NCBI GenBank assembly: GCA_963666975.2
Contig: CAXVYR010000002.1
Coordinates: 256,001-320,000 of the forward strand
DNA: 64,000 nucleotides
DNA from: Terriglobia bacterium
GTDB lineage: Bacteria > Acidobacteriota > Terriglobia > 2-12-FULL-54-10
Direction of reading: 5' to 3'
The notes beneath the pieces are model-generated. The model was given only the letters and a program-made list of their open reading frames with translations, ran no database searches and had not been told where the DNA came from. Positions 13,613 through 54,750 of the stretch are shown in pieces. The position numbers and the translations under genes are program-made. The number at the start of each line of letters is the position of its first letter. The stretch's first letter is position 1.

Positions 13613-13670
13613 TAGTTTTCCCTCCCCATTTATCTGGCCCCTTTTATGGTTGCCCTTTCTATTTATCTCA

Positions 13671-15554: not shown

Positions 15555-16143
15555 AAAACGTAACCCCTTAATGTTGAAATTGACGGGCCGGCCAAGTTTT
15601 GAAAAAGCCATTACCCAATCCCCAGAAATCCTTCCAGGGTAGCGCATGTCTTTGTCTGATGCCGATGAGCTATCCGCAGAGACTAAGTCCTATGCTTCCT
15701 CTTTGTCAAGCTCTCTCTACTCATGCTGAAAAGCCTTTGCGCGGACTCCAAATTTAAGCACTATTTAAGCGATGCCGCTTCCTGGAATGCCCTGGCCGTT
15801 GCCTGTTTTCTGCTTCTGCCCTCCGGGGTGCAAGCGGGATTCGGCAGGCTGGAGCAGGCCGCAAAAAAACCCAGAGTAGTGAAACCCTTCAGGAAGAGGT
15901 ATGATATTGTCCTCTTTCCAATTAGACGCAAAAAGGGGAGAAGTCATGTCACCGAGAATAGCGCCGGGCACGGTGGAGGTAGCCCGCTCGCAGCTTCTGC
16001 AGAGAGACGAAGCGGACGAGGCTGTGCGGATCACTGCGCGGAAAATTAGGGATTGAGTAATCTCCCTGTGCTGGGCAATAATAAGCGGCATCCCCAATTC
16101 CATCGAAGCGCTGCGCCGAAGCAAAAAATGGAAGGGTGGAACC

Positions 16144-16970: not shown

Positions 16971-17732
16971 ATGATTGAGGCCCAAGGCCTCAGCAAGTTT
17001 TACGGCAGCTTCGCGGCGATCCGCGATGTATCGTTCGCAGTGCCCCGCGCCCAGGTAGCGGCTTTCCTCGGACCCAACGGGGCCGGCAAATCCACCACCT
17101 TAAAGATTCTCACCGGTTTCCTGACGCCCAGCGACGGCACGGCCCGCATCGCCGGTTTGGACGTGGCTGCCCACCGCATTGAAGCTGCCTCGCGGGTCGG
17201 ATACTTGCCGGAAAACGGACCGCTCTATCCTGAGATGACGCCGCTCGAGCTGCTGGAATTCTTCGGCGAGGCTCGCGGGCTGCCCAGCGGCCGGTTGAAG
17301 AGCCGCATCGAGGCCGTTGTCCAGCAGTGCCAGTTGCAGGCGGTGATTGAGAAGAGCATCTTCAAATTGTCGAGAGGATACCGCCAGCGAGTCGGAATGG
17401 CGCAGGCCTTGCTGCATGAACCCGACATTCTCATCATGGACGAGCCGACCAGCGGCCTCGATCCCAACCAGATTCGCGAAGTCAGGGAACTGATCCGCCG
17501 TCTCGCGGCCAGCAAAACGATCCTTATTTCCACGCATATTCTGCGAGAGGTTGAAGCCGTGGCCAGCCACGTGATTCTGGTCGATGAAGGACGCGTGGTT
17601 TTTGACGGAACACCGGCTGAGATGGCTGCGGGGCAGAGTCTCGATGAAGCCTTCTACCGGCTGACCGGCAAGGTTTCCGGTTCCGCGCCCAGCCGTACCC
17701 CGGCCCAGGCTGCCCCGGAGGTTCAAAGATGA
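16971..17732 (+). CDS. ABC transporter ATP-binding protein (GldA-like)
   Basis: GPNGAGKSTT, LSRGYRQRVGMAQALLHEP, MDEPTSGLDPNQ, ISTH; start reassigned to MIEAQGL. Confidence 0.92.
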   Translation: MIEAQGLSKFYGSFAAIRDVSFAVPRAQVAAFLGPNGAGKSTTLKILTGFLTPSDGTARIAGLDVAAHRIEAASRVGYLPENGPLYPEMTPLELLEFFGEARGLPSGRLKSRIEAVVQQCQLQAVIEKSIFKLSRGYRQRVGMAQALLHEPDILIMDEPTSGLDPNQIREVRELIRRLAASKTILISTHILREVEAVASHVILVDEGRVVFDGTPAEMAAGQSLDEAFYRLTGKVSGSAPSRTPAQAAPEVQR

Positions 17733-20467
17733 ACGACCGCTGGCGAATTCCCAAAGCGATCGTGAAACGCGAGCTGACCAGCTACTTCAGCAGTCCCACA
17801 GGCTACGTTTTCATTACGCTGTTCGTCTTTCTGAGCGCGGTAGCCGCCTTTTGGCAGGAGGCGTTTTTCAATAATAATCTGGCCAACCTCGGTTCCCTGA
17901 ACAGCGTTTTTCCCTACCTGCTTCTTTTTCTGATCCCGGCCATCACAATGAACTTGTGGGCCGAAGAGAAACGCAACGGGACCGATGAGTTGTTGCTGAC
18001 CCTTCCGGCTACCGACCTGGAGATTGTCGCCGGCAAGTACATGGCGGCCCTGGCGATCTATTCGGTGGCCCTGGTGTTCTCGCTGAGTCATCTGATCGTG
18101 CTCTGGTGGCTGGGAAGCCCCGACGTAGGCCTGATGTTCTCCACCTATTTCGGGTATTGGCTGATGGGCGCGGCGCTGATGGCCGTGGGCATGCTGGCCT
18201 CTCTTCTAACGGCCAATCTCACCGTTGCCTTTATTCTGGGATCGGTATTCTGCGCAGTGCCGGTATTTATCATTCATGCCGGCGCCATCTTGAGCGGAGG
18301 GCCGCGGCGGCTGGTCGAGGGGCTGTCGTTTACCGAACAGTTCCGCGATCTCTCCAACGGAGTGATTTCGTTGTCCTCGGTGATCTACTTTGTTACCTTC
18401 GCTCTGGCGATGCTGTATCTCAATGTTGCCCTGCTGGGGCGGCGTCACTGGCCGAGCCGCAAAGGCTCCGAGCCGCTCGGGCGCCATACCCTGGTTCGGG
18501 GCGCGGCGTTGCTTGTGATCGTCGCCAGCATCACCATTCTGGCGGTGCGGCTGGGTGGACGCATCGACTCCACCGCCGAGCGGCTCCATTCGCTCTCCGT
18601 GGAAACCGAGAAGCTCATCGACGGGCTCAATTCCGATCTCCCGGTATTTATTCAAGCCTATCTGAGTCCGGTTGTGCCCCGCCGCTATTTGCAAACCCGG
18701 AACAACATTATCAGCGTGCTGCGGGAGCTGGATGCCATGGGAGGCAACCGCATCCACGTCCAAATCCTTGAGACAGAAAAATACAGCCCCGCAGCGCGCG
18801 AAGCGCAAGACCTTTACGGCATCCGGCCGCGGCCCATTGCAGTGTGGGAGCAAACCGCCGGAAGCGACGCCGAGATTTACATGGGAATCGCATTTCGTTC
18901 CGGAGGCGAGGAGTTCGTGATTCCGTTTTTCGATCCGGGCCTGGCCGCCGAGTACGAACTGATGCGTTCCATCCGGTTGGTTGCTCACGCCGAGCGCAAG
19001 AAGGTGGGGATTCTGAAAACCAAAGCCGAGATCTTCGGCGGTTTTGACTTCCAGACCCGTGTGCCGACGCCCGACTGGTCCATAGTCGAGGAGTTGCGCA
19101 AGCAATACGAAGTGGTGCAGGCTCGTGCCGGGGCGGACTACCCAGAGGACATCGACGTACTGATTGCGGTCCTGCCGCATACGCTGGAGGTGCCAGAGTT
19201 GGATCGGTTAACCAGTTACGTTCGCGAGGGACATCCCTTGCTGCTGCTGGTCGATCCGTTGCCGGCCTTCAATATGGAGCTTTCGCCGCAGCCGGCTCCG
19301 TCCAGCCCCTTTCCTTTTAACCGGCCCCCTCCCCCCCAGCCGACCGACATCACGCCTTTGATGGACGCGCTGGGAGTTGCGTGGTCCAAGGAGGAGGTTG
19401 CCTGGGATCAATACAATCCACATCCGCAGTTCGGCGCCATGCCGGAAGAGGTGATTTTTGTCGCGGCGGGCAACGAAGCGGCTGAGGGGGCCTTCAACAG
19501 CGACGAGCCGGTTTCTGCGGGCTTGCAGGAGATGGTGCTGCTCTATCCGGGCCGTTTGCAGCCTGCTGCAGAAGCGGCTGAGGACCAGGCGACTGCGGGT
19601 GAAACGCCAGAGGTTGAAACGACAGAAGAAGGTGCGGGTGAGGGCGAAGCAACGGATGAACCGGCGGAAAAGGAGACGTTTGAGTTTGTCTCTTTGCTTG
19701 AAACGGGCAGAGACTCCGGCGTTGTCCCCTGGCAGTACGTGGTGCAGCCTTCGCTGTTTGGGATGCAGATCAATCCGAACCCTCCGCATGAGGCGGATGC
19801 GGAAGCCCACATCCTGGCTGCGCGGGTGACCGGCTCCGCAGCGGAGAACCCGGTCCGCGCCATTGTCATCGCCGATGTCGATATGATGAGCGAGCAGTTT
19901 TTTGAGCTGCGCCGTCAGGGTATTGCGAACCTGAACTTTGATAACGTCACATTCTTGCTGAACGCAGTGGACCAACTGGCCGGGGACGAGTCCTTTATCG
20001 CTCTGCGCAAGCGCCGGCCGCGGCACAGGACGCTCGAGGCCGTCGAGGCCCGCACGCGGGTGTACGAGCAGCGCCGTCTGGAGGAGACCCAGCAGGCCGA
20101 GGCAAACGCGGAGGAACGACTGCTGGAAGCGCAAATCCGGCTGGAGGGCGCCGTGGAAGCGTTGCGCCAGCGCAGCGACCTGGACCGGCAGACCAAACAG
20201 ATCATGGTCGCCAATCTGGAGCAGGTAGAGAACCGCCGCCTGGCCGTCGCCCGCGGCAACATCGCGGACCGGAGGCAGCAGCAGATTGAGCGCAGCCGGG
20301 CCGACATGGAAACCTCCATTCGCGGTATTCGGAGTACGATCCAATTGCTGGCCGTTGTGCTGCCGCCCATTCCGGCCTTGGTGCTTTTTGTGTTTGTTTC
20401 CCTCCGGCGGCTCCGGCGGGAAAAGATCGGCATTTCACCTGACCGTTTGGTCCAGGACCGGAGATAG
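17729..20467 (+). CDS. Fused ABC-2 permease and GldG-like auxiliary domain (GldF-GldG-like)
   Basis: KRELTSYFSSPTGY, WAEEKRNGTDELLLTLP, multiple TMs, then HSLS...periplasmic domain and C-terminal TM. Confidence 0.88.
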   Translation: MNDRWRIPKAIVKRELTSYFSSPTGYVFITLFVFLSAVAAFWQEAFFNNNLANLGSLNSVFPYLLLFLIPAITMNLWAEEKRNGTDELLLTLPATDLEIVAGKYMAALAIYSVALVFSLSHLIVLWWLGSPDVGLMFSTYFGYWLMGAALMAVGMLASLLTANLTVAFILGSVFCAVPVFIIHAGAILSGGPRRLVEGLSFTEQFRDLSNGVISLSSVIYFVTFALAMLYLNVALLGRRHWPSRKGSEPLGRHTLVRGAALLVIVASITILAVRLGGRIDSTAERLHSLSVETEKLIDGLNSDLPVFIQAYLSPVVPRRYLQTRNNIISVLRELDAMGGNRIHVQILETEKYSPAAREAQDLYGIRPRPIAVWEQTAGSDAEIYMGIAFRSGGEEFVIPFFDPGLAAEYELMRSIRLVAHAERKKVGILKTKAEIFGGFDFQTRVPTPDWSIVEELRKQYEVVQARAGADYPEDIDVLIAVLPHTLEVPELDRLTSYVREGHPLLLLVDPLPAFNMELSPQPAPSSPFPFNRPPPPQPTDITPLMDALGVAWSKEEVAWDQYNPHPQFGAMPEEVIFVAAGNEAAEGAFNSDEPVSAGLQEMVLLYPGRLQPAAEAAEDQATAGETPEVETTEEGAGEGEATDEPAEKETFEFVSLLETGRDSGVVPWQYVVQPSLFGMQINPNPPHEADAEAHILAARVTGSAAENPVRAIVIADVDMMSEQFFELRRQGIANLNFDNVTFLLNAVDQLAGDESFIALRKRRPRHRTLEAVEARTRVYEQRRLEETQQAEANAEERLLEAQIRLEGAVEALRQRSDLDRQTKQIMVANLEQVENRRLAVARGNIADRRQQQIERSRADMETSIRGIRSTIQLLAVVLPPIPALVLFVFVSLRRLRREKIGISPDRLVQDRR

Positions 20468-22181: not shown

Positions 22182-23924
22182 TTACCGAACCTGCACTTTC
22201 ACCATCTTCGATGGCGGACGGTAAGCGGGGATCCACAGCGTGGGCCGGTCGGCGGTCCGGTCGACCGTTAGATCGCGGACCTCATACGGCAAGGGCATAA
22301 AGAATTCCGTAGTCTTCTCAGTTCTCATATCGAGACGGAAGATTCGGCTGTTATTGAAGTCCGTTGCCCAAACCCACTGATTCTTATTGTCGACCGACAT
22401 AGAGTAGGGCGCGGGAAACGGGGAGCCGAAAGGCTTCGAGCCGGGAACGAGCGGAAATTCTTTGACTTCGCCTTTGTTCGCATCGAACATGCCGATCCTG
22501 CCGGCAAAGTAGAGGCCGACCCAGAGGCGGTCTTGCGCGTCCATCTCCCCGCGCCGGGGACCGGATTGCGGCGTAGGAGTGGGAAAGTCGGCGTACTCTT
22601 CCGTTCTGGGATCAAACATTCCGATTTTGCCGTTGCGCCATACGTTCAGGATGGACCTGCCTTGCGAATCCACTTCCATATCATAGGTGCCGTCATTCGG
22701 AGGAATCGTGTACTCCTGCACTGCTCCGCTCTCCATGTCGACCTTGTAAAGGGCGCCCTCGTCGTCGGTGTGCCAAACGTTGCCTGCCGGGTCGATTCCA
22801 AACATGTTGGAGCCTGAAGTCCGGGGCGTGAATTGTTCCGTCTGGGGATTGAAGCTGATAGTAGCTTCGCGCAAACCGAACACCACATTCCCTTGGGGAT
22901 CAAAAGTGATGTCGTGCGAGCCTCCGGCTGGATTGCCTGCACGCGCCTGCCCCGCAGGTTCGCTGACCCTTCCGCTCCCAGAAGGTATTGGATACGGAAA
23001 TTCCTTCACTTCACCGGTCTTCTTGTCGAGCCTGCCCAGAACATAGGAGAAGTGGTCCGTGTACCATCCGTAATTTGCATCTACGATAATATCGTGGGGC
23101 CAAGCAAACCGCCGGTCCCCGCGAAGCATATAAAGTTCCCGGCTCCCGCCCCGGGGAATGTCGTACTCGGTCACTACAATGCCCGTGGAAGCCTCGCCCG
23201 TTGGCCGGGGGCGCAGTTGGAACGGAAGCTGGTCGGAAGAGCCTGGCCCCCGAATCGAAGCCAGGTAGTCAGCCAGCGGTTCCAGGAACCTCTTTTGGCC
23301 ATAAGCGCTGGTTCCGGGAGCGTCCCGCGAGACGCGTCTTTCCCCTGCCATTCGGCTGATGATCTGAACCCACTCCTGCTTCGTATGCGGGTTTCTGAGG
23401 GCCCACTGCAACGAGTGGCAGTTGCTGCACTGTGTCAGCAAAAACTTCATGTCATCGCTGCCGGGCAGCGCAACCGCAATTTCTGCGGCAGTCGCTTCAC
23501 TGAGCAACGGTTGCCGGGGTCGCAAGGTGAAGTTCAACTCCGCCGTTTTCCCGGCAGTAAGCAGAACGGCTTCCCGGTTGACATGCTCAAAGTCAGGAAG
23601 CTGGATGGCTACGTTATAGGAACCCGGAGCCACGTCCGACCACTCCGGAAATGAGTACTCACCCCGGCGGTTGGTGTAGACACTGACCGTCATGTTGCTG
23701 TTCTGACGATGGGCTCGAACCGGAATGCCCGCCAGCGGCACTCCGCTGGAAGAAGCAACACGGCCGTTGAGAAGCGGCGCTTCCGCGGCGAAGGATGCGG
23801 CCGGCGACACGCAAGCGGCCGCCCAAACGGCCATCAGGATTGCTGCCCGCGTATAGCTCTGAGTATAACTATGGATATTGAGTCTAGGGATAGTGAGCCT
23901 TGGCAATATTGTGGCATTCATCAT
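22182..23924 (-). CDS. Exported protein: carboxypeptidase-regulatory-like domain, monoheme cytochrome c, Vgb-lyase-like beta-propeller
   Basis: Hydrophobic signal; LNGRV...G.PLAG...VYTN..GEY; CSNCH...WVQIISRM; repeated D..G..W...IG.FDP blades. Start approximate. Confidence 0.82.
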   Translation of the reverse strand: MMNATILPRLTIPRLNIHSYTQSYTRAAILMAVWAAACVSPAASFAAEAPLLNGRVASSSGVPLAGIPVRAHRQNSNMTVSVYTNRRGEYSFPEWSDVAPGSYNVAIQLPDFEHVNREAVLLTAGKTAELNFTLRPRQPLLSEATAAEIAVALPGSDDMKFLLTQCSNCHSLQWALRNPHTKQEWVQIISRMAGERRVSRDAPGTSAYGQKRFLEPLADYLASIRGPGSSDQLPFQLRPRPTGEASTGIVVTEYDIPRGGSRELYMLRGDRRFAWPHDIIVDANYGWYTDHFSYVLGRLDKKTGEVKEFPYPIPSGSGRVSEPAGQARAGNPAGGSHDITFDPQGNVVFGLREATISFNPQTEQFTPRTSGSNMFGIDPAGNVWHTDDEGALYKVDMESGAVQEYTIPPNDGTYDMEVDSQGRSILNVWRNGKIGMFDPRTEEYADFPTPTPQSGPRRGEMDAQDRLWVGLYFAGRIGMFDANKGEVKEFPLVPGSKPFGSPFPAPYSMSVDNKNQWVWATDFNNSRIFRLDMRTEKTTEFFMPLPYEVRDLTVDRTADRPTLWIPAYRPPSKMVKVQVR

Positions 23925-24095
23925 ATAGCTGACCTTTCTCCAGATTTCTTGGAACTCCGCCGGAATACTCGAATACAACCTTATCGGAGAAGTCTGTCTG
24001 TCTGTCCGGGATTCTACGCCAGTTACCCTTGCAGGTCGAATCGGAAATTCACATAGCTTCCTAGGTGATATCACGGCTTGTTTTGGCTAAGCCCG

Positions 24096-24210: not shown

Positions 24211-24308
24211 CACTGATCATAGTTGCACTGATCATAGTTGCACTGATCCTTGATGCATTATGGATGCATTATGGATGCACTCTGGATGCACTATGGATGC
24301 ACTATGGA
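24211..24308. repeat. Short tandem repeats (15-mer x2.5, 11-mer x~5)
   Basis: CACTGATCATAGTTG twice plus a partial copy, then (TGGATGCAYTA)n-like units. Confidence 0.85.
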
Positions 24309-25159
24309 ACCGGCAGAAGCGGCTTCTGGTCTGGCGACAGTTGCTGATCGAACGTAGTCAGCAACACGGCGGTGCTCGCATAGTTGCCCATCAAGGAAAC
24401 CATGTCGACGAGAGTCTTGTTTCCAAACAGCTGCAAGGCGCGCGCGAAAGTATCCGGGCTGAGCCGGTGGTTCCTGAAGACTTCGCGGCCGAGCCGGATG
24501 ATGGACGCCTCTTTTTCGCCCAGTCCCGTAAGGGGCTTGCGGAGCCTGACGACGTCAATGATCGCAGGTTCCAGGCCTTCCTGTAGTGCCACGCCTTCGC
24601 GGCCGAGCCGGATGATGGACGCCTCTTTTTCGCCCAGTCCCGTAAGGGGCTTGCGGAGCCTGACGACGTCAATGATCGCAGGTTCCAGGCCTTCCTGTAG
24701 TGCCACGCCTTCGTGAACCGTCCACTCAAACTGCTGGTCCATTTCGCGGGCCGTCACCAGGATAGCCAGTTCCGTCAGCCGGCGTCCGAGGTCGGATTCG
24801 TACCGGAGATATTCGCTTTCCCTCGCGCGCAGGCTGTGGAGCCGTATCCCCGCCGGTCCCTGCAGCCCGGCGAGCGAGCGGGGGTTGCTGACGGCGGAGT
24901 CGTAGGCCTTTTTTCCCTGCTCGTCCATGTCCTCTCGTTGGATCAGGGGAAGGCGGTTGCGTGAGTCGGGATAGACATCATCGGGAAACTCTGCCGCGGA
25001 TGTTTGAGAAGATGCTTGCGACGATGTTTGAGAAGATGCTTGCGGGGCGCCACCGACAGGCGATGCGGGTTGTTGCGATACGCTGTTCTGCCCGCACCCC
25101 ACGGCGGCCCATGTTCCAGCGACCAGCAAAAAAGCTCCCAGGGTTTGAAACAGTCTCAT
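24302..25159 (-). CDS. Carboxymuconolactone-decarboxylase/AhpD-like probable lipoprotein with an internal 38-aa duplication
   Basis: AVGC lipobox-like signal; SRNRLP, TELAILVTARE...FEWTVHE..AL..GL pattern; exact 114-bp tandem repeat. Confidence 0.8.
   Translation of the reverse strand: MRLFQTLGAFLLVAGTWAAVGCGQNSVSQQPASPVGGAPQASSQTSSQASSQTSAAEFPDDVYPDSRNRLPLIQREDMDEQGKKAYDSAVSNPRSLAGLQGPAGIRLHSLRARESEYLRYESDLGRRLTELAILVTAREMDQQFEWTVHEGVALQEGLEPAIIDVVRLRKPLTGLGEKEASIIRLGREGVALQEGLEPAIIDVVRLRKPLTGLGEKEASIIRLGREVFRNHRLSPDTFARALQLFGNKTLVDMVSLMGNYASTAVLLTTFDQQLSPDQKPLLPVP
24481..24713. repeat. Perfect 114-bp tandem duplication
   Basis: Unit starts at 24481 and 24595; CTTCG microhomology recurs at 24709. 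Confidence 0.95.
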
Positions 25160-25399: not shown

Positions 25400-26230
25400 A
25401 TGCGGTATTGGGGATTAATATTGCTCCTCGGTGCGGGGCTGCTGATTGCGCTCACACTAGGCGTGCGGGATATCCGCCGGGCTCAATCCGAATTGGGGCA
25501 GCCGGTCGGCAGCGGCTCCGCAACGGACATCCCAACCATACGGTTCGTGAAGAACCCCTCTCCTGTGCCGGAATTTACCTATGAAGACCTGGAAGGACGA
25601 AGCCAGGGCACGCGTGACTGGCTGGGCAAAGTGGTTCTGTTGAATTTCTGGGCCACATGGTGCCCGCCTTGCCGGGCGGAGATTCCCGACCTGATCCGGC
25701 TGCAGACCGAGTATGCGGACCGTTTGCTGATTGTCGGGCTCTCGACCGACGCTGAGGGAAAAGAAATAGTGCAGTCATTTGTGGAAGAGGCGGGGATCAA
25801 CTACCGGGTAGGCATGTCCACACCGGAGGTGGAAGCAAAATTCGGGGGTGTTTTGGGCCTCCCGACAACTTTCTTGGTGGATACCAGGGGACGAGTCGTA
25901 CAAAAGCATATCGGTTTTGCGAACCCGGAGCTTTACGAAATGGAGATTCGCGCCTTGCTGGATCTCCCCGTCAATGCGAACGTGGAAATGTTTGAGGACG
26001 AGGGACAAGTCTTCCTCTCAAACGCCGCCAATGCAACCGAGTTGCCTGGAGTGGACCTCTCCCAGCTTACTCCGGAACAACGGAAAGCCGCCCTCCGGCA
26101 GCTCAACGAGCAGACATGCACCTGCGGATGCAATTTGACGCTGGCGCAGTGCCGGATCAACGACACCACTTGCGTTGTGAGCACGGAGCTCGCCAATCAA
26201 GTGGTGGAGGAAATTATAGCCTCTCAGTAG
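25400..26230 (+). CDS. TlpA/ResA-like thiol:disulfide oxidoreductase with Cys-rich C-terminal domain
   Basis: N-terminal TM, LNFWATWCPPCRAEIP, LPTTFLVD..G; C-terminal CTCGC-x6-C-x6-C. Confidence 0.9.
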   Translation: MRYWGLILLLGAGLLIALTLGVRDIRRAQSELGQPVGSGSATDIPTIRFVKNPSPVPEFTYEDLEGRSQGTRDWLGKVVLLNFWATWCPPCRAEIPDLIRLQTEYADRLLIVGLSTDAEGKEIVQSFVEEAGINYRVGMSTPEVEAKFGGVLGLPTTFLVDTRGRVVQKHIGFANPELYEMEIRALLDLPVNANVEMFEDEGQVFLSNAANATELPGVDLSQLTPEQRKAALRQLNEQTCTCGCNLTLAQCRINDTTCVVSTELANQVVEEIIASQ

Positions 26231-26570: not shown

Positions 26571-26781
26571 GCGTTTTCACAGTTGGTGTAAACCACAACG
26601 CATTGTCATTCCGAGCCCTTTGGCGTTGCTCAGGATAAACTCCGCGAGGAAGCTCGCTTTTCACAATAACAGCCTGTGGAACAAGCAGATTCCTCGGGCC
26701 GACCACAAACCTCGGCCCTCGGAATGACATTCTAAAAAGGTTTTGGAGCAAATCCACGAGCTACACCAACTGTGAAAACGC
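26571..26781. mobile_element. MITE-like non-autonomous element
   Basis: Perfect 20-bp terminal IR GCGTTTTCACAGTTGGTGTA (26571-26590 and 26762-26781); internal GTCATTCCGAG...CTCGGAATGAC palindrome. Confidence 0.75.
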
Positions 26782-26828
26782 CTTAGAACTATATAGCAGC
26801 GGTTCCAGACCATTACCTAAGGGGACTT

Positions 26829-29081
26829 ATGACGAACAGGAAGATTGCGACGGGGGCGAAGCGGCGACAGAACCTCGTACTGGCAGCCATCCTAACATTG
26901 CTCGGAGTGGGTGCTGGATTTTTGCTATCCGGGGGAAATGATATTGAGGCGCGCTCTGCCTTGGGCCGCAAACCCACCGGATTTCCCCAGCTAGTCTCGG
27001 TAGAACCCTTGCCGATGATGGACGGGGAGATGTGCCAGTGGATGCCCGCCAGCGCATCCGGCAACCTTCGCGCGTCACTCTTCCAGACGGGCGCATCCGG
27101 TCGCGCCGCCTCGGCGGAAGACCCGAACCGCGAGGAGGTTCGGCGGCGGCCCCCCCTGCGAACCATCAAAGACCCCTATGCTTCGTTCAGCGCCATCGCG
27201 GTGGACCCCGTTCGCGATGAAGTGATCATGACCGATGAAAGTCTCTTCCAGATTCTCGTCTATGACCGATTGACCAACACTCCTCCCACGGCCCAATTTT
27301 CCGAGCCGAAGCGGTCCATCGGCGGTTTAGATACGAAGGTGGATTATGTCTGCGGGCTCTACATCGATCCGGCAAGCGGCGACATCTACGCCATCAACAA
27401 CGACACGGTGGACACGCTGGTCATCTTCAACCGCCAGGCCAAGGGCAACATTCCGCCGACGCGGGAACTCTACACCCCGCACGGCACCTACGGGATTGCG
27501 GTGGATGAGGGAGCCGAGGAGCTGTTTCTCACCATTGAGCACGACAGCGCCGTGGTGGTCTTCAACAAGTGGGCGGAGAAGGATGCGGAGCCGCTGCGAT
27601 CCTTGCAGGGAGAACGGACGCGTCTGGCCGACCCGCACGGCATCGCCCTGGACGCGGAGCGGAATGTGATGTACGTCGCCAACTTCGGCTCGTCCCAATC
27701 CCACGATCCCAACCTCGACAACAAGTCCCGGCCGATGTACAGCCGGGGCGAAGGAAAAGCCAACTGGCCTCTGACGCGCAACAGCGTCATTCCGGGCAGC
27801 GGACGTTTCACCGATCCGTCCATCACCGTGTATGCGAAGGACGCGCGAGGAAACACGGCTCCCCTCCGTGTCATCCAGGGCCCGAAGGCGAGGCTGAACT
27901 GGCCCACAGGACTGGCCCTTGACCCGGTAACCCATGAACTTTTTGTCACCAACGACATGAATGACGAGGTGCTGGTCTTCGACGGGGACGCCGAGGGAGA
28001 CGTGGCGCCGAAACGCATTCTCGGCGGGCCGAAGACGATGATCAAAAACCCCACCGGCGTCTGGGTGGACCGGGAAAATGAAGAGTTGTGGGTCGCCAGT
28101 TTCGGCAACTACACAGCGACCGTTTTTCCGTTGGGCGCATCCGGCGACACGGCCCCGCGACGGGTGATTCGCAGCGGCCCCCTGGGAAAACCCGCGCTCA
28201 TGATCGGGAACCCGCACCCAGTGGCCTATGACAGCAAGCGCGAGCAGATTCTGGTCCCCAACTGAGTGGCTCATCCGCAGATTGCGGTATTCGCCAGGAC
28301 GGCGGATGGAAGCGACTCTCCCGTACGGAAAATCGAGGGCCAGAAAACCAAGCTGGGGCGCACCATGCACTCTATCATTTACGACCCGATCCATGATGAG
28401 ATCAGCGTGCCGCAGGACTTCGCCCACGCCATTCTGACGTTCCGCGCGGATGCCAGCGGCGAGCAGCCTCCGATGCGGATTCTGCAAGGTCCCGACACTC
28501 GTTTGAATGGACCGGAACGGCACACGGTGGACCCGGTAAACAACGAGATTTATGTGCCTCAAGGCGACGAGATTCTGGTCTTTGACCGCGAAGCGGCGGG
28601 CAACGTGGCTCCGAAACGCATTCATAAGGGGCCGGACACGAAATTAGGCGCGGGCGCTGTGGCCGTGGACCCGGTGCGCAACCTCCTGGTTGTTGTGGGA
28701 ACGCATGAAACTGAAGGGCTGAAAATCCGCATCTACCCGCGAACGGCGGAGGGCAACACCCCGCCGCTGCGGCAGATCGGAGGGCCGAACAGCATGATCA
28801 CGAGGATGGGCGGCCCGTTCGCGCTGTACCCGCCCTCGGGCAAGATCGTTCTCACGATGCGTCCCCGGAAGGCCGGTGTTCTGGGCGGGGATGACAGTTT
28901 CACCGGCGTCTGGAACATTACAGACAACGGCGATGTTCCGCCCCAATGGACGATCGGGGGGCCGAAAGGCGCTCTAGTGATGCCGCGCGGCGTTGCGCTG
29001 GATGTGAAGAACAAGAGCATCATCGTGACCGACAAGCGGCTCAACGCGATCCTCACTTACTATTTCCCGGAAATTTTCTAG
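26829..29081 (+). CDS. Exported NHL/YVTN-like beta-propeller protein with in-frame TGA at 28263-28265 (candidate selenoprotein, 750 aa)
   Basis: ORFs 26829-28265 and 28266-29081 abut in the same frame; the repeat P.R.I.G..T.L..P.GIA.D....E..V......I.VF continues across the TGA; no SD before GTG 28266. Confidence 0.75.
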
Positions 29082-29189
29082 CCGGTTGCTGGAAAACCGC
29101 TGGCCGTCGTGCCGAAACGCTCTCCAGCCATGTGCGCTTCAGCGCCTGAGGCGAGTCTTGCACTCTGCGTGTTCCAGCAATTCAACCCC

Positions 29190-29295
29190 GACCTCAGCGG
29201 CTGAAGCCGTTGTCGTGATCCGGGTAGCGGCAGTTAAAGACACCCCAGCACGCTGACAGCGGCGTGCTGGGGGGGCCGTCAAACCGTGCCCTGAC
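29190..29295. repeat. REP-like palindromes between convergent genes
   Basis: CGGCTGAAGCCG hairpin, CCCCAGCACG/CGTGCTGGGG stem, GTGCCCTGAC end as at 50351-50377. Confidence 0.5.
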
Positions 29296-29334: not shown

Positions 29335-32300
29335 CTAAAAAGAGAAGCGCAAGGCGAATTGAATCTGGCGTGATGTGGTCGCCGTCCTGGAAATCCTTCC
29401 TGCCGTACTGGTTCGGTTGCCGGACCGGCCCGAGAAAACGACAGCGGAAGGGCTTGTTAAATTGGGATGGTTGGGAAGATTGAACAGGTCGGCTCGGAAT
29501 TGCAATCGCCGTTTGGAGTCGAGTAAAAATTCCCTCCGGAGCGATACGTCCATGTTGAACACGCTAGGGGAGATGAGCGTGTTGCGGCCCGCGTTGCCGA
29601 GGGTTCCCGGCGGAGGCGCCGAAAAAGCACAGGGATCGAAATACAGCTCCGGGGTGCCCAGGGTTTGGCCTGCGCTAATGCGGCCGCAACCAGCCGAAAC
29701 ACCCTCCACCAGATTGTTGCTCGCGCCGCCGGCCAGATTCGGCCTGCTGGCCGCAAACAGGTAGCCTTCGGCGCGGGCTTTGGACTCGGCGGAGAAGGGG
29801 GTCCCTTTACGTAAGTTCATGATCCCGCCCAGCCGCCAGCCGCCCAAGAGCTTGGAAAGGGGGCCTGAATTCCACCAGCGCTGCCCGCTCCCGAAGGGAC
29901 TATTATAGAAGTAGCTGAACACGAGGCGATGCCGAATATCGAAGTCCGACAAGCCGCGGTCGAGCGTCCGCATCAGGGGATACTGGCCGGTGTTGGATTG
30001 CTGCCCGACGGAGGAATCATCCACCGATTTGCTGAACGAATAGCTGGCCTGCAGGGATAGACCGGAGCTAAGCGACTTATTGGCGGAAACCTGCAGCGCG
30101 TTGTAAAAGGATTGCGCGTCCGTATTGATGATGGTGATCGAACCAAAGTTCGGATTGGTCGGTCCCGCGTTGGGCTGGCAGAGGTCTGAAGGATTGGGTG
30201 AACTGCAATCATCCGGGAAGAAGAGCGCCCCATCCTGCTGAACGACGGGAACCGGATACTGGTTCGCCTCGAAACGGCGCAACAGGTGGTTGCCTCGGGA
30301 ACCGACGTAGGAAGCCTGCGTGCGCCAGCCGCCCGGCAGCTGCTGCTGCAGCGTTACGTGGTAACGGAACACCATCCCCGAGTTCATAGCCTGATGATCC
30401 ATGACCTGAACCAGGAAGGGCACGTCGACGGCGCCTTCCAGCGCGTTGGGGAAAAATGCGGAGGTGTCCAGATTGGGGCTGACCGCGATGTTGTAAAACG
30501 GAGCCGAGCTTCTTCGCGAATTGGCCACGTATCCCAGAACGGGGTCGTAGTAGATGCCGACGCCGCTTCTCACCACTGTTTCCCGGCCCTCCCAGGGAGT
30601 CCACGTAAGACCCAGGCGGGGCGCGAAATTCAAAAGAGAAGAATTGCTCTCAAAGAAATCCCCGTACTCCACCTCCGTGCTCCGCACGACGTCCCGAAGA
30701 AACACGGTCTTGTTCAGCCGGTCGCTGATTTTGGTAACCATTTCATAGCGAAGACCCATGCTCACCTGAAGGCGAGGATGGAGCCGGTATTCATCTTGAG
30801 CGTAAAGGCCCACCAAAGTCTGCCGAAAGTCGCGCTGGTTGTCCGAGCCGGGCAATGCAACGGCCAGACCTGTTCCCACCGGTCCGGCCTGCAAAAACCC
30901 CTCCAGGCTGTTAAACGACCACACCGCACCCTTCTGCCAGTCGCTGAAGATGTCCCATCGGTAGCGATGCACGTCCACTCCAAACTTCAACGCATGAGGC
31001 CCTCGCTGCACAATGAGCTGCCCCCCGAACTGAAGGGATTTCGCGTTATCGGCCCGGGGGATATTCGACCTAGGGCCGAAGGCGCTTAGACCCGGCATCT
31101 GGATTACGCCGAACCTCGGAGCCTCGGGCAGGAAGAACAACGAAGGCGGGATTTCAATCAGGGAACGCGTGGCGGAAGAGTCAATCATTCGCGTATAACC
31201 AAAGCGGAACGCCGCCAGCGCCTGCAGATTGAGGATGTGGGTTCCCACCACCGTGAGGTATTGCTGGCGGGTCTCTTTGACGGTCTGGAACAAGTGTGTG
31301 CCCTGCGACTCCTCGCCGGTGGCGTCGTCAAAGGTGTAGCGGGCGAAGAAGCTGTCCTTGTCCGAGATTTTTTGGTCCACGCGAAAGGTAAAAAAGTTTT
31401 CGTTCACCGGCAGAAATTGGGGAGCCACGTTGCGTCCTACGCCGCGTCCCAGCCCGATATCGTTCGGTACGGGAATCAGCTCCAGGTAGGGCTGCACGCT
31501 GGGCGCGATGGGGACGGTGGGCGTGCCGGAGGAGTCCGGAAATCCGCTCCGAGCCTCTCCGTCCGGGAAGAAGCTCACATTGGTCTCGGTCAAACGGTCG
31601 CGCAGTCCCTCATAGCTGAACAAGAAAAAGGCCCGGTCCTTTTGTAACGGGCCCGTCAGCGTAAATCCGAACTGGTTCCGCTTAAAGGGAGGCGGCTCAG
31701 AATCGCGGTCAAAAAAGTTGCGTGCATCCAGCTTGCTGTTGCGGAAAAACTCAAACAGGGTTCCATGAAATTCGCCGGTTCCGGAGCGGGTGATCGAATT
31801 CAAAACCCCTCCGCTGCTGCGGCCATACTCGGCTCCATAACCGGCGCTGAGCACCTGCACCTGGAAAACCGTATCGGACCCCAGTTGCACCCCGGCGGCG
31901 CTTCGGGGAACTTGATTTCGCGCATTCATGATGCTGGTTCCGTCCAGCAGGAAGTGGTTGGAGGTGGCGCGGCTGCCGGAAACCGACAAGCTGCCGCCGC
32001 CTACTCCCCTGGAGGCGGAACTGGAGGAGGAATCGCTGACTCCAGCCTGCAAGGTGGCCAGCTGGCTGTAGCTGCGGCCGTTCAGCGGAAGGCCCAGCAG
32101 CTGGCTTTCATTGATCGTATTTTCTGACGCTTCAGAGGAAGACTCTTCCGCCGTGCTCACAGGGGCCGCCTCTTTTTGTTCTTCTTCTGCCTGCTCTTGT
32201 TCCGCAGCTTGCCGGGCTTCGGATTCCAGGGCAAACAGAAGAGCAAGCAATTGACCTGCGCTCAAGTCTAAACTTTCCCGAGCCTGAGGCACAAACCCGG

Positions 32301-32595
32301 CACGCGAAGCTTGAACGGAATAAGCGCCGGGAGAAAGCAGTTGAATTTCAAAGTTTCCCTGGGTATTGCTTTGAGCTGACAAGACCTGCCCGGTAGCTAG
32401 GTTTCTGGCGACGACCGTCGTCCCGGAAAGGGGCTCACCCTTTGCGCCTGTGGCCGTCCCGTTCAGCGTTGTCAACCGGCTAGGCTGGGCCACACGGGCC
32501 CGCTGGGACACCCCTGCTGACGGAAAGAAAAACGCCAGCATGAGCACAATAGCCGGGACAAGCCACCCGATTCTGATCACGCGGCGATCTTGCAT
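29335..32595 (-). CDS. Oar-type TonB-dependent receptor with N-terminal carboxypeptidase-regulatory-like domain
   Basis: Signal peptide, LPLNGRSY..LA.L..GV, AEYGRSSGGVLN, FFRNSKLDARNFF, RNQFG, C-terminal RQIQFALRFSF. Confidence 0.92.
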   Translation of the reverse strand: MQDRRVIRIGWLVPAIVLMLAFFFPSAGVSQRARVAQPSRLTTLNGTATGAKGEPLSGTTVVARNLATGQVLSAQSNTQGNFEIQLLSPGAYSVQASRAGFVPQARESLDLSAGQLLALLFALESEARQAAEQEQAEEEQKEAAPVSTAEESSSEASENTINESQLLGLPLNGRSYSQLATLQAGVSDSSSSSASRGVGGGSLSVSGSRATSNHFLLDGTSIMNARNQVPRSAAGVQLGSDTVFQVQVLSAGYGAEYGRSSGGVLNSITRSGTGEFHGTLFEFFRNSKLDARNFFDRDSEPPPFKRNQFGFTLTGPLQKDRAFFLFSYEGLRDRLTETNVSFFPDGEARSGFPDSSGTPTVPIAPSVQPYLELIPVPNDIGLGRGVGRNVAPQFLPVNENFFTFRVDQKISDKDSFFARYTFDDATGEESQGTHLFQTVKETRQQYLTVVGTHILNLQALAAFRFGYTRMIDSSATRSLIEIPPSLFFLPEAPRFGVIQMPGLSAFGPRSNIPRADNAKSLQFGGQLIVQRGPHALKFGVDVHRYRWDIFSDWQKGAVWSFNSLEGFLQAGPVGTGLAVALPGSDNQRDFRQTLVGLYAQDEYRLHPRLQVSMGLRYEMVTKISDRLNKTVFLRDVVRSTEVEYGDFFESNSSLLNFAPRLGLTWTPWEGRETVVRSGVGIYYDPVLGYVANSRRSSAPFYNIAVSPNLDTSAFFPNALEGAVDVPFLVQVMDHQAMNSGMVFRYHVTLQQQLPGGWRTQASYVGSRGNHLLRRFEANQYPVPVVQQDGALFFPDDCSSPNPSDLCQPNAGPTNPNFGSITIINTDAQSFYNALQVSANKSLSSGLSLQASYSFSKSVDDSSVGQQSNTGQYPLMRTLDRGLSDFDIRHRLVFSYFYNSPFGSGQRWWNSGPLSKLLGGWRLGGIMNLRKGTPFSAESKARAEGYLFAASRPNLAGGASNNLVEGVSAGCGRISAGQTLGTPELYFDPCAFSAPPPGTLGNAGRNTLISPSVFNMDVSLRREFLLDSKRRLQFRADLFNLPNHPNLTSPSAVVFSGRSGNRTSTAGRISRTATTSRQIQFALRFSF

Positions 32596-38531: not shown

Positions 38532-38538
38532 GTGAACG

Positions 38539-39021
38539 ATGAAGCGAGCCATCCAAGTTACCGTCAACGGTGGAGTCCACGAGTTGAGCGTAGAACCGCG
38601 GGAGACTCTTTTGGAGATCCTTCGAGGGCCGGTGGGCTTGACCGGCACCAAATTGGGATGCGATCAGCAAGTGTGTGGATCGTGTACGGTCTTGATGAAC
38701 GGCCTGCCGGTCAGTTCCTGCTCCGTTCTGGGAGTGGACGCGGCCGGCAACGAGGTCCTGACCATCGAGGGGTTGGCGACCGATGGAGAATTACACCCCA
38801 TTCAGAAGGCGTTTATCGAACACGGGGCTTTCCAATGCGCATACTGCACTTCCGGTCTGATCCTGGCCGTGAAGGCGCTTCTGGATCAGCTCCCTGCACC
38901 GGAGGAAGGCCAAATTCGCCACTTCTTGGCCGGCAACATCTGCCGTTGCGGATGTCATTTGGAAATTCTGCAAGCCGTGCGGTCGCTGCTTCAACAGTCG
39001 CAGCAGCGGAAGGAGGCTTGA
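38539..39021 (+). CDS. Xanthine-dehydrogenase-family 2Fe-2S subunit (CoxS-like)
   Basis: GTKLGCDQQVCGSCTV, QCAYCTSG, NICRC. Confidence 0.93.
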   Translation: MKRAIQVTVNGGVHELSVEPRETLLEILRGPVGLTGTKLGCDQQVCGSCTVLMNGLPVSSCSVLGVDAAGNEVLTIEGLATDGELHPIQKAFIEHGAFQCAYCTSGLILAVKALLDQLPAPEEGQIRHFLAGNICRCGCHLEILQAVRSLLQQSQQRKEA

Positions 39022-41369
39022 TGGGCAAGTTTTCCGTGATTGGCCAGTCGGTTCCCCGACTGGAGAGCGAGGAGAAAGTAACCGGCCAGTTGAAATTTCT
39101 AGACGATCTCAAGCTTCCCGGACTGCTGTACGGAAAGATTCTTCGGAGTCCCCATGCCCATGCCAAGATTCTGCATATTGATGCCGGGCAGGCAACAAAG
39201 CTTCCCGGGGTCGTTGCCGTTTTGACTCGGGACGACGTCATCGGCAATCAGGCCTATGACTCCCATTACGGGCCGATCCTGAAGGACCAGACCATTGTAG
39301 CTCTTGACAAGGTCCGTTACGTAGGGGATCCAGTGGCGGCGGTAGCGGCAACGAGTCCGTACGTGGCTGAGGAAGCTATGGAACTGATCGAAGTCGACTA
39401 CGACGAATTGCCGGCTGTCTTGGATTCGGAAGAGGCGCTCGCCGAGAATGCACCGCTCCTTCACGAGAAGATTCAGAAGCCCCGCCAGGGTTTTGCGGAT
39501 CTGTCCGATGTCGGGCACGTCGAAGGAACCAATATCTGCAACCATTTTCACTTGAGCAAGGGAGATGTCGAAAAAGGATTCCGGGAATCGGACCACATTT
39601 TTGAGCATGTCTTTACCTCGCCTGCCGCTCAGCACGCGGCCCTGGAATCTTTCTCGGCGGTCGCCAGCTTTGACTCGTCTGGACGACTGACCATCTGGTC
39701 CACCGTACAAAATCCGTTTGTGATTCGGGACCAGATTGCCGAGCTGTTCCATCGGCCACTCTCGAAAGTGCGGGTCATTGCTCTTCACTTAGGCGGGGGC
39801 TATGGCTCCAAGCTTTACCCTAAACTGGAGCCTTTGGTGGCGGCCCTGGCGCACAAGGCAAAACGTCCGGTAGGCGTTACACTGACCCGGGAAGAGGTCT
39901 TTCTTACCATTACAAAGCACGCGGCGAAGATCTACGTGAAGACAGGAGTATCCAAAAACGGCAGGATCCTGGCCCGTGAGTGCCGGGTTGACCTGGACAC
40001 AGGGGCGTACGCGGAGATCGGTCCCAGAGTATCGAAAAAGTCCGGATACACGGCAGCGGGCCCGTATGAAATCCCGAACGTCCTGATTGACTCCTACTTG
40101 CTCTATACCAACAAAGTGCCGGCCGGCGCATTTCGGGGATTCGGAGTGTCACAGTCCAACTGGGCTCATGAATCGCAAATGGACATTATCGCGCGTGCTC
40201 TGAAGATGGACCCTCTGGAGTTGAGGCGAAAGAATCTGCTGGATGAGGGCGGAGAGTTCGTTACGGGCGAACGTGTTCACAGCGCGGCTATGATGGAATG
40301 CCTGAACAAAGCCGCGGCTGCTGTCCGGTGGGGAACGCGGTCCGAGCCCGCAAGCAAATCGGCGGCTCGCGGCAAAGGTCTTGCCTGTCTCATTAAAGCA
40401 ACCATTACTCCTTCCATCTCCTCGGCCCTGGTCCGCCTGAACGAGGACGGAAGCGCCACCGTCTATGTGGGAACCACCGACATGGGTCAGGGCTCCGACA
40501 CGGTGATGGCCCAAATCGCGAGCGAAGAGCTGCGCATCCCTCTGGATCAAATTGGGGTTGTCCACTCAGATACCGATCTCACTCCATACGATCTGACGAC
40601 TTCCTCCAGTCGCTCCACGTTCCACATGGGACGAGCTGTTCAGATGGCCGCCCGAGATGTCAGTGTACAGCTTGCTTGCATGGCGGCCCGGCTGTTCAAT
40701 GTCGGCCCGGAGGAAGTAGTCTGCGAGAATCAGGGAGTCAGACCGGGAGACAATAGCGCTCCGAGCCTGAGTTACAATGCCCTCCTCCTCAAAAACTTCG
40801 GAATCAAAGGGGCTAATCTGATAGGAAAAGGGACCGTGAAGACTCGCTCAACGTTGGACAACGGAGAGCATGTAACGTCCGCTTTTTGGTTCGCTGGGGC
40901 CGCCGCCGCTGAGGTGGAGGTGGATCGCGACACTGGGCAGGTCCGTGTAGTGCGGTATGCGATTGCAGCGGATGTCGGGAAAGCACTCAACCCGTTGTTT
41001 TGTGAACAACAACTCCGCGGGGGCACAATCACCGGAATTGGACTGGCTTTAATGGAACAACTTGTTTACCAGGGGGGGTTACTGATCAACCCTAATTTCC
41101 TCGATTACAATCTGCCCCGCTTTCTGGATGTTCCGGAAGAGATTATCCCCATTCTGGTAGAACGGGCTCATCCGGAGGGACCTTTTGGCGCGAAGGGATT
41201 AGGCGAAACAGCGCTCATTCCCGCTGCTCCAGCGATTGCCAATGCCGTTGAAGATGCCGTAGGCGTCAGGATCACTGAATTGCCGATAACGCCGGAAAGA
41301 GTTTTGTCGGCCTTGCAGCAGAAGCAAGAGGAAAAAGTAAAGAAGTCGACTCTTTCCAGGGTATCGTGA
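39021..41369 (+). CDS. Xanthine-dehydrogenase-family molybdopterin subunit (CoxL-like, not CO dehydrogenase)
   Basis: Start reassigned to MGKFSVIG after AGGAGG; RSPHAHA, GGGYGSK, GAFRGFG, DMGQG, GAKGLGE. Confidence 0.93.
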   Translation: MGKFSVIGQSVPRLESEEKVTGQLKFLDDLKLPGLLYGKILRSPHAHAKILHIDAGQATKLPGVVAVLTRDDVIGNQAYDSHYGPILKDQTIVALDKVRYVGDPVAAVAATSPYVAEEAMELIEVDYDELPAVLDSEEALAENAPLLHEKIQKPRQGFADLSDVGHVEGTNICNHFHLSKGDVEKGFRESDHIFEHVFTSPAAQHAALESFSAVASFDSSGRLTIWSTVQNPFVIRDQIAELFHRPLSKVRVIALHLGGGYGSKLYPKLEPLVAALAHKAKRPVGVTLTREEVFLTITKHAAKIYVKTGVSKNGRILARECRVDLDTGAYAEIGPRVSKKSGYTAAGPYEIPNVLIDSYLLYTNKVPAGAFRGFGVSQSNWAHESQMDIIARALKMDPLELRRKNLLDEGGEFVTGERVHSAAMMECLNKAAAAVRWGTRSEPASKSAARGKGLACLIKATITPSISSALVRLNEDGSATVYVGTTDMGQGSDTVMAQIASEELRIPLDQIGVVHSDTDLTPYDLTTSSSRSTFHMGRAVQMAARDVSVQLACMAARLFNVGPEEVVCENQGVRPGDNSAPSLSYNALLLKNFGIKGANLIGKGTVKTRSTLDNGEHVTSAFWFAGAAAAEVEVDRDTGQVRVVRYAIAADVGKALNPLFCEQQLRGGTITGIGLALMEQLVYQGGLLINPNFLDYNLPRFLDVPEEIIPILVERAHPEGPFGAKGLGETALIPAAPAIANAVEDAVGVRITELPITPERVLSALQQKQEEKVKKSTLSRVS

Positions 41370-46406: not shown

Positions 46407-46484
46407 GTGCCCATATCCCCAGGTGCCCGTTTTGGCTCGTACGAGGTCCTCGGCCCGTTAGGTGCGGGTGGCATGGGAGAGGTG
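46407..46484 (+). pseudogene. N-terminal relic of a Hanks-type Ser/Thr protein kinase
   Basis: MPISPGARFGSYEVLGPLGAGGMGEV (glycine-rich loop); similarity ends abruptly. Confidence 0.8.
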
Positions 46485-46589
46485 CCGGTCGCATTAACCG
46501 GTCTGCGGGTCCTATTACCGCCCATCGAACGACAACGCCAATTGCTGAAACGTTGCCCAGGCTCATGGGGCCTTCGGAGAGGTGCATCA

Positions 46590-52530: not shown

Positions 52531-52672
52531 AATTCACCACCTTAAATTTAAGCAGTTTGCTAAAAAAGACAGGCCGGACGGAATGCCGCTTCCGTCCGCC
52601 TGCGGACCCGTACCCTCAAACCCCGAAATCCAACTGATCACTGCCCCGACTACCTCGTTCTACCAGGAAAAC

Positions 52673-54544: not shown

Positions 54545-54659
54545 AAATTACCACCTTGAATTATAAGCAGTTTGCTAAGAAAGCCAGGCCGAACGGAATG
54601 TCCGCTTCCGCTTGGCAGTTTGTGACTTCAAACCTCCGAGAGCCAACTAACCTTTAGTA

Positions 54660-54750
54660 GGTTGTTGAAAAACACCATTTACCCGCTCCCTCACCCCTCG
54701 GCTTCGCTCGGGGCAGGTTTCGCGGCCCGGACTATACACGAACTGTGAAA
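54660..54750 (-). repeat. Dispersed repeat family A, copy 3, inserted in an array spacer
   Basis: Reverse complement TTTCACAGTTCGTGTATAGTCCGGGCCGCG...GAGGGAGCGGGTAAA...TTTTTCAACAACC. Confidence 0.75.

Follow-up and report, generated by a model that had tools for sequence, protein, structure and literature searches.

The NHL propellers of TRIM and Brat proteins bind RNA or protein, and the secreted enzyme PAL carries a Zn/His site and no Cys or selenocysteine (Sec) nucleophile. The thiol:disulfide interchange, DsbA/DsbG-like and UGC-type TlpA selenoproteins of bacteria, all of thioredoxin fold, are extracytoplasmic. They are listed in Table 1 of PMC13188914, according to which most characterised selenoproteins have a thioredoxin-like fold. 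Here we describe a gene located in a stretch of 64,000 nucleotides (the window; positions 256,001 to 320,000 of contig CAXVYR010000002.1, assembly GCA_963666975.2) from a Terriglobia bacterium. Judged from its sequence, the 2,253 bases at 26829–29081 of the window very probably constitute one gene, in which the UGA at 28263–28265 would be decoded as Sec by the SelA, SelB, SelD and tRNA-Sec of the host, yielding an exported double-propeller selenoprotein.

Both halves of the predicted protein share the fold of the NHL propellers of TRIM2, TRIM71/Lin41, Brat and the PknD sensor domain. These are single propellers devoid of Sec or a conserved catalytic Cys (13–21% identity), whereas the window protein, unlike TRIM2 or Brat, comprises two fused propellers, is predicted to be exported and contains an invariant Sec/Cys position. 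PAL (3fw0_A), a six-bladed NHL propeller enzyme, matches propeller 1 with Z 25.8 and propeller 2 with Z 26.6 at 14–17% identity. In human NHLRC2 (NHL domain, Z 28.1) and plant SUPPRESSOR OF QUENCHING 1 (SOQ1; entries 7djl/7djk, Z 28.2–28.5; residues 115–437 of the model), the NHL propeller works in conjunction with a thiol-redox domain; neither contains Sec, whereas in the window a redoxin is encoded by a separate gene and the redox-type residue lies inside the propeller itself. With the thioredoxin-fold selenoproteins the family has in common a Sec in place of a conserved Cys, a bacterial Sec insertion sequence (bSECIS) element within the coding sequence directly behind the UGA and the existence of Cys homologues. 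Those proteins contain UxxC or CxxU motifs, whereas the window family is a propeller of about 750 residues with no nearby partner Cys and with 20–30 paralogues per genome.

The gene is laid out as follows.

26829–29081, + strand: predicted single selenoprotein gene of 750 residues (ATG at 26829, Sec-TGA at 28263–28265, stop codon TAG at 29079–29081)
26819–26825, + strand: Shine–Dalgarno-like AAGGGGA, 3 nt ahead of the ATG, by direct reading of the sequence
28263–28265, + strand: TGA probably read as Sec, residue 479 (Cys in 120/120 homologues, TGA in 104/104 extracted copies)

Two open reading frames (ORFs), 26829–28265 (478 aa) and 28266–29081 (271 aa), occupy the same frame with the TGA as their sole interruption, as a first-pass annotation of this DNA had described. 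That annotation had also found no Shine–Dalgarno sequence for the second ORF and had proposed a 750-residue product with Sec at residue 479. Both points were borne out: inspection of the start of ORF 28266–29081 revealed no ribosome-binding site, while AAGGGGA precedes the first ATG, and translation with TGA as Sec (U) gives exactly 750 residues with U479 in the context ...YDSKREQILVPN-U-VAHPQIAVFART..., that is, ...REQILVPN-U-VAHPQIAVFAR.... The homologues, of 724–796 aa, are colinear with the window protein along its entire length.

A search with residues 330–750 yielded 2,794 proteins at E ≤ 0.001, and the best 120 of these, mostly 724–796 aa long and 47–60% identical over residues 330–750, were aligned. 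All 120 full-length homologues exhibited Cys in the U479 column, within the motif (N/S)-C-V-(A/G)-(H/Q)-P-(Q/R)-I, and C479 and V480 were invariant in the resulting 121-row alignment. The query carried C at position 479, which favours shared words; still, no exception to Cys was observed, and the Trp or Arg that the first-pass annotation had considered as possible aligned residues never occurred.

The TGA itself was equally conserved. Among 41 related genomes scanned, a family match was present in 15, including 11 of the 13 other genomes of the host's own family, and 147 of the 150 listed matches contained exactly one TGA (none in two, both from genome G011, and two in one). Extraction of the loci L015–L120 gave 104 distinct copies with TGA and 2 with Cys, with the TGA at the identical codon in 104/104, as expected if the TGA codon were conserved, a test that the first-pass annotation had suggested. 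In the host genome, L-V-P-N-U-V-A-H-P-Q-I-A is found at 9 places, one of them inside a frame of merely 334 residues. We saw neither TAA/TAG at codon 479 nor pairs of genes separated by varying distances, either of which the first-pass annotation had named as a sign against Sec, and the Cys forms are single fused genes. On these sequences, the recurrence of TGA at one codon exceeds chance, because the same codon is TGA in 104 copies and the homologues carry Cys in 120 of 120 cases.

Five genomes were examined in full and showed the TGA in 111 of 132 rows. Twenty rows had no stop, 19 of them being pieces that do not reach residue 479 and the remaining one starting at residue 477 and abutting a TGA-holding piece; one further row had TAA. 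The complete 3.8-Mb genome G003 holds 27 genes with the TGA, and the related Terriglobia (Acidobacteriota) genomes have 22–33 family matches each. Of 401 genomes sampled from the phylum, only 2 gave a match at E ≤ 1e-50. A scan of species genomes found 276 relatives, of which 80 loci were kept; these are metagenome-assembled genomes (MAGs), mostly labelled Acidobacteria, Terriglobia, Solibacteraceae, Bryobacteraceae or Candidatus Sulfopaludibacter, with a few labelled Binatia, Verrucomicrobiia, Luteitalea, Vicinamibacterales or 'Deltaproteobacteria'. The two near-full-length copies without TGA (G011:C3:221-2326 and G011:C441:3908-6136, from a genome of the host's family) are presumably Cys forms coexisting with TGA forms. 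In G148, a genome from another family of the phylum, the gene is present as two abutting pieces.

Downstream of the TGA, two short hairpins were delineated.

28290–28306, + strand: SECIS-like hairpin 2, UUCGCC-AGGAC-GGCGGA, with an apical loop beginning 30 nt past the TGA
28275–28287, + strand: small hairpin 1, CCGC-AGAUU-GCGG, beginning 10 nt past the TGA

Across the 104 copies, the codons following the TGA are fixed at synonymous sites: CCG at +4 in 102 copies, GCG at +7 in 99, TTC at +9 in 103, GCC at +10 in 99, the Arg codon AGG at +11 in 98 and GCG at +13 in 102. Control Arg codons of the same genes exhibited no such preference, position −8 being CGG in 49, CGC in 43 and AGG in 0 copies, and position +21 being AGG in 9. 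The Cys forms provided a second control. For these we scanned metagenome contigs for the pattern N-C-V-A-H-P-Q-I, obtaining 48 stretches, of which 43 were usable and about 35 were family members; 8 unrelated chance matches are still included in the Cys-form codon table. In the Cys forms L089 and L109 and in a Cys clade recognisable by 'SKREE...ARSADGN', the Arg is encoded by CGC or CGG (CGC in the clade) and the stem is absent.

Hairpin 2 has the family consensus UUCGCC-AGGNU-GGCGRA and is paired in 99.2% of its cells over the 104 copies, with both-side changes from G-C to C-G and from C-G to U-A in one copy each. Hairpin 1 is paired in 93.0% of cells, with a both-side change from C-G to A-U in 2 copies, and its role in recoding is uncertain. 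We also considered a long stem including the UGA, suggested by single-sequence folding; it was rejected in favour of the short hairpin, because it is paired to just 78.7% across the copies and shows no compensatory change. The bSECIS rules given in PMC13188914 (section 5 and legend of Fig. 2A) specify a loop of 3–9 nt, a stem of 4–16 bp, a G in the first two loop positions, a distance of 16–37 nt from the UGA and a minimum free energy of at most −7.5 kcal/mol. With its 5-nt loop, 6-bp stem, G in the first two loop positions and spacing of 30 nt, hairpin 2 fits these rules in geometry, and 86 of the 104 copies pass all of them when the 17-nt hairpin is folded alone. In 92/104 copies the loop follows the form N1-G-[G/U]-N-N2 with N1:N2 pairing, and the window hairpin reaches −19.6 kcal/mol within a 54-nt context. 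A hairpin directly downstream of the UGA, which the first-pass annotation had expected from the known mechanism, is thus present, conserved and compatible with the bacterial SECIS model. The hairpin UUCGCC-AGGNU-GGCGRA within the coding sequence would direct the recoding of the UGA.

The host genome is equipped for Sec incorporation. It encodes a tRNA-Sec (Rfam, 72.8 bits; anticodon tca according to aragorn) as well as SelA, SelB and SelD, so that the machinery whose presence the first-pass annotation had left to be checked was found in full. Its SelD itself contains Sec (KAAG-U-ASK; G000:C4:1360322-1361257) and its own UGA is followed by a stem of 7 bp capped by a GGU loop. Four genes of the AhpC/TSA family (G000:C4 at 1246630, 418868, 1108689 and 863703) likewise contain an in-frame TGA, in the motifs TPG-U-T, W-U-PYC or W-U-GAC, with short hairpins whose G-containing loops include GUG and GGGAC. 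For the formate dehydrogenase model TIGR01591 no match with an in-frame stop was obtained in the host. TGA ends 984 of the 2,532 host frames of at least 300 aa and is the commonest stop of long frames; the genetic code is therefore standard. SelA was found in 10 of the 13 other genomes of the host's family, and in 9 of the 11 that hold the propeller gene.

The DNA around the TGA was also seen independently. Contigs from two runs of other studies span 26700–29200 with 1–2 differing letters per long piece, and neither run reports a differing letter at the TGA, where the contig pieces extend from 28257 or 28259 to 29200; the suspicion of a sequencing error, which the first-pass annotation had wished to see addressed in this way, is not borne out. 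Depth at 28212–28295 climbs to 144 and 321 in the two runs compared with about 4 and 8 elsewhere; at 90% likeness, paralogues pile up on that stretch alone. Shared by all paralogues, the SECIS stretch at 28212–28306 behaves as a short nucleotide repeat and fragments assemblies. In two metagenome runs the public contigs break at 28257–28264, where depth rises about 40-fold. At 27079, within the disordered tail of the protein, an in-frame insertion of 12 bases is present in contigs from two runs of other studies. Shares of 0.26–0.35 in a sponge and a marine metagenome run were not taken as evidence of habitat.

A number of observations weigh against the assignment of a recoded UGA. Covariation is thin, with both-side changes in 4 cells over the two hairpins, and the case for a SECIS therefore leans mostly on the frozen codons. 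The single-sequence fold of 28255–28340 does not exceed shuffled sequence in stability (z = −0.64), and Rfam gave nothing at gathering scores over the whole window and nothing at E up to 10 for 28200–28400. The window loop AGGAC is unique among the 104 copies and lacks the closing A:U pair, and its hairpin folded alone has −7.2 kcal/mol, just short of the threshold. Hairpin spacing in the family exceeds that of the other Sec genes of the host, whose hairpins lie nearer to the UGA. Among the Cys forms, the clade 'TKREQ...LAEGGAKP', near the TGA forms, retains AGG/AGA and the stem, and L131, L154 and L159 from metagenome contigs have an altered yet pairing stem, TTTGCC-AGGTT-GGCAAA. Three genomes of the host's family, G001 (95% complete, 29 family matches), G007 (78% complete) and G006, yielded no SelA; SelB is present in all three, a 74-bit tRNA-Sec in G001 as well, and the propeller gene was not found in G006. 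Contigs of RNA libraries matched as short exact pieces only (143 and 162 nt), covering 2 and 6 of 30 bins, which is too little for a claim of transcription, and no piece spanned the TGA with 31 letters on each side.

The distribution of Sec and Cys was traced on a tree of 239 rows (99 with TGA, the rest being Cys forms, 114 of them from the database and 26 from the loci), from which rows below 650 aa were left out and the tail columns as well as the Sec column were dropped before calculation with FastTree and midpoint rooting. State changes between Sec and Cys numbered at least 13, with the TGA lineages forming the backbone and the Cys clades nested within. L131, L154 and L159 are sister to two divergent TGA forms, and their hairpin could be either a SECIS relic or a stem retained for a different reason. 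We read the hairpins kept in Cys forms as relics, but they show that the stem is not strictly tied to the TGA. Because the Cys clades are nested and relic hairpins occur, Sec appears ancestral in the family; this is a reading of a midpoint-rooted tree whose root was not inferred, and not a proof.

The predicted product is organised as follows.

26829–26927, + strand: N-terminal signal/anchor, a basic stretch followed by a hydrophobic helix at residues 15–27 (DSSP of the model)
27033–27035, + strand: codon of Cys69 in the flexible tail, in C-x-W after R-L-V-x-x-E-x-L-P (Cys in 90/99 TGA copies)
27156–28130, + strand: propeller 1, six-bladed, NHL-type, residues 110–434 (model strands and structure match)
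28161–29078, + strand: propeller 2, six-bladed, NHL-type, residues 445–750, carrying the predicted Sec479 (separate fold and structure match)
28368–28370, + strand: codon of His514 in the next blade (99/99 TGA copies, invariant in 121 sequences)

The AlphaFold model of the full protein, with a predicted local distance difference test score (pLDDT) of 89.3 and a predicted template modelling score (pTM) of 0.86, comprises 12 four-stranded blades; residues 435–750 folded alone reached a pLDDT of 92.5 and a pTM of 0.91. Aligned with VIA-align to the TRIM2 NHL domain (7qrv_A), residues 115–437 gave Z 28.9 with a root-mean-square deviation (rmsd) of 2.2 over 250 aligned residues, and residues 435–750 gave Z 27.9 with an rmsd of 2.6 over 264. 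A Foldseek search with the whole model had returned only generic tandem WD propellers at a TM-score of about 0.3 and was of no use before the domains were compared one by one. U479, part of an invariant N-U-V-x-H-P motif, is located between strands 473–478 and 484–489 of the same blade (blade 7), in the loop after the second strand, precisely the mid-blade loop position that the first-pass annotation had read from the repeat register. The hydrophobic helix at residues 15–27 likewise agrees with its N-terminal signal or anchor on the first ORF, and a hydrophobic segment is present in all homologue N-termini shown, followed by R-L-V-x-x-E-x-L-P...C-x-W. A twin-arginine export motif was not conserved, with 23 of 113 sequences matching even a loose pattern. 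The tail of about 80 residues is modelled mostly at low confidence up to about residue 105, with Cys69, nearly invariant in 121 sequences, in a region of pLDDT below 50.

Among the 99 near-full-length TGA copies, conservation was 90 for C69, 90 for C175, 98 for H270, 97 for H482 and 99 for H514. Conservation of the four His residues named in the first pass was uneven, with H514 in 99/99, H270 in 98/99, H218 in 92/99 and H463 in 57/99. In sequence searches, the Pfam NHL repeat scored 33.3 bits against a cut-off of 20. PF10282 (Lactonase, 7-bladed beta-propeller) reached 24.3 bits against 21.7 over residues 331–477 only; the model consists of two six-bladed units rather than one of seven blades. 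PF08450 (SMP-30/gluconolactonase) stayed at 22.3 bits, below its cut-off of 26.3. YncE / 6-phosphogluconolactonase is the name that JGI gives to many homologues, and the protein lies far below the corresponding NCBIfam equivalogs (NF052280, 18.5 bits against 400; NF008258, 21.5 against 370). A sequence profile search of the PDB retrieved only NHL/YWTD repeats and designed 'Pizza' propellers (best E 4.9e-11), with no functional lead.

The product would be exported and anchored through its N-terminal hydrophobic segment, displaying first the tail with Cys69 and then the two NHL propellers. We tentatively favour an extracytoplasmic oxidoreductase in which Sec479 would be the redox-active nucleophile, recycled via a selenenylsulfide with Cys69 as the resolving thiol and a periplasmic thiol reductase, though the odds for this chemistry are somewhat less than even. 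The preference stems from PMC13188914, which ascribes likely redox roles to many uncharacterised selenoproteins that resemble thiol oxidoreductases or carry redox motifs. The following speaks against such a mechanism: the window protein has no CxxU or UxxC motif, the tail carrying Cys69 is modelled with a pLDDT below 50, and a redoxin lies beside the propeller gene at 2 loci only (the window and L017).

The best-surviving alternative concerns the chemistry alone and leaves the gene a selenoprotein. Sec binds Mo or W in formate dehydrogenase and Ni in [NiFeSe] hydrogenase, and Sec479 could analogously serve as a metal ligand: at the top face of propeller 2, its Se together with His residues close to it in sequence (H482, H514) would bind Cu, Zn, Fe or Ni. 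The invariance of H514, the presence of H482 in 97/99 TGA copies, the recurring P-H-G motifs with H218 (92/99) and H270 (98/99), and the lack of a CxxU/UxxC motif are all in line with a metal site, as are metal enzymes among the structural neighbours, namely PAL (Z 26.6 for 3fw0_A) and a propeller-containing Cu/Zn superoxide dismutase from Deinococcus (Z 24.2 for 9m58_A). Many Cys forms, however, have Gln in place of H482 (CVAQPRI rows), which is therefore not an obligatory ligand, and the scarcity of the twin-arginine pattern (23/113) gives no hint of cofactor loading before export. We consider a metal-binding role less likely than not, and somewhat less likely than the thiol-based redox chemistry with Cys69.

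Far less probable is a read-through of the UGA without Sec, for example by near-cognate insertion of Trp or Cys or through stimulation by the hairpin, or a general use of TGA as a sense codon in this organism. A conserved post-stop hairpin could in principle stimulate read-through; yet TGA is the commonest stop of long host frames (984/2,532), every aligned homologue has Cys at this position, a hallmark of Sec/Cys pairs, the Sec machinery is complete, the hairpin fits the SelB-type bSECIS model, and SelD and four AhpC/TSA-family genes of the host also contain an in-frame TGA.

Least of all do we expect the TGA to be a genuine stop, be it in a broken gene, through a sequencing error or between separate proteins of 478 and 271 aa, since against the splitting of the gene here by gene callers, the ordinary single-sequence fold and the short public entries stand the same TGA codon in 104 distinct copies from many assemblies and in independent runs, the conservation of both halves and their colinearity with fused Cys forms, a second half that has no ribosome-binding site and would start mid-blade, and the synonymous codons frozen past the TGA. 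As to these entries, at least 36 of the 150 best representatives of the C-terminal half are proteins of about 170–320 aa that start either at Met513 or directly behind the TGA, and the nearest Atlas clusters are 273–504 aa long; because gene callers split at the TGA, public collections hold halves of about 270 and 430–500 residues.

Within the selenoprotein assignment favoured here, the family is apparently uncatalogued, being absent from the main-text selenoprotein catalogues compared. No propeller, NHL or lactonase family is among the 119 prokaryotic selenoprotein families of PMC13188914 Table 1, and NCBIfam has no model above 21.5 bits for the window protein, in agreement with the first-pass annotation, which knew of no characterised selenoprotein family with this fold. 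The main texts of PMC13188914, PMC13326102 and PMC12013277 mention no propeller, NHL, lactonase or YncE protein, and the main texts of the BSepDB and deep-Sep publications mention no propeller selenoprotein. Literature searches brought up nothing further on such a protein. It is conceivable, if somewhat short of an even chance, that this is an ancestrally Sec-containing, uncatalogued family and the first with a β-propeller fold, in which Sec479, on the top face of propeller 2, would carry out an extracytoplasmic redox reaction new for a propeller, cycling through a selenenylsulfide with Cys69 of the flexible tail.

In that case, most of the selenoproteome of a Terriglobia lineage would consist of its 20–30 paralogues per genome, which would differ in substrate, and by gene count these Acidobacteria would come near known Sec-rich bacteria; going by the main text on BSepDB, its tenth-ranked organism has 46 selenoprotein genes of all families. 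The 27 such genes in one complete 3.8-Mb genome would alter the picture of selenium use in Acidobacteriota, and recognition of the family would add hundreds of selenoprotein genes. The protein would be both a Sec-containing propeller and an exported selenoprotein. A Sec backbone with nested Cys forms, some of them with relic hairpins, would provide a useful case for studying the replacement of Sec by Cys, and the run of about 45 frozen nucleotides past the TGA offers a ready-made probe for family members.

The gene neighbourhood includes one further feature of interest.

25400–26230, + strand: TlpA-like redoxin, membrane-anchored, with a WCPPC motif (Pfam Redoxin 68.3 bits, AhpC-TSA 66.8 bits)

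This gene lies 600 bp upstream of the propeller gene on the same strand, and a role of its product as redox partner of the propeller is possible but unproven. On the other side, a TonB-dependent-receptor-like outer-membrane protein (29335–32595) was considered as a linked gene; it is adjacent in 10 of the 75 copies with both flanks and was therefore not counted as linkage, and its protein lacks the FCYxU/C motif of the known TonB-receptor selenoprotein. Across the loci, the other neighbours seen most often were Amidohydro_3 (19 ORFs at 18 loci), followed by an unnamed protein of about 170 aa at 16 loci and a DASS transporter at 9. The neighbours point to no single pathway and do not settle the question of redox chemistry or metal binding.

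Amidohydrolases recur within the window as well. Six tandem ORFs of 620–656 aa occupy 50638–62831 on the − strand, the four that were scanned being Amidohydro_3 (98–132 bits), the second commonest neighbour family of propeller genes in other loci, and two ORFs at 11768–15647 (−) match Amidohydro_1/Amidohydro_3. A 630-aa ORF at 22182–24074 (−) combines a CarboxypepD_reg domain with a Vgb-lyase-like propeller, and relatives of it lie near propeller-selenoprotein genes in L076, L084 and L130. An ORF at 24302–25159 (−) is CMD/AhpD-like by a weak Pfam match (19.5 bits); within it, about 39 residues (GVALQEGLEPAIIDVVRLRKPLTGLGEKEASIIRLGRE) occur twice in an exact tandem duplication that stays in frame. 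Elsewhere, the window encodes a secretin (GspD/PilQ-like; 3780–6587), an ABC-2 permease fused to an ABC_transp_aux domain (17729–20467), a molybdopterin subunit of the xanthine-dehydrogenase family (38532–41369) and a PQQ-propeller dehydrogenase with a cytochrome c domain (46407–48437).

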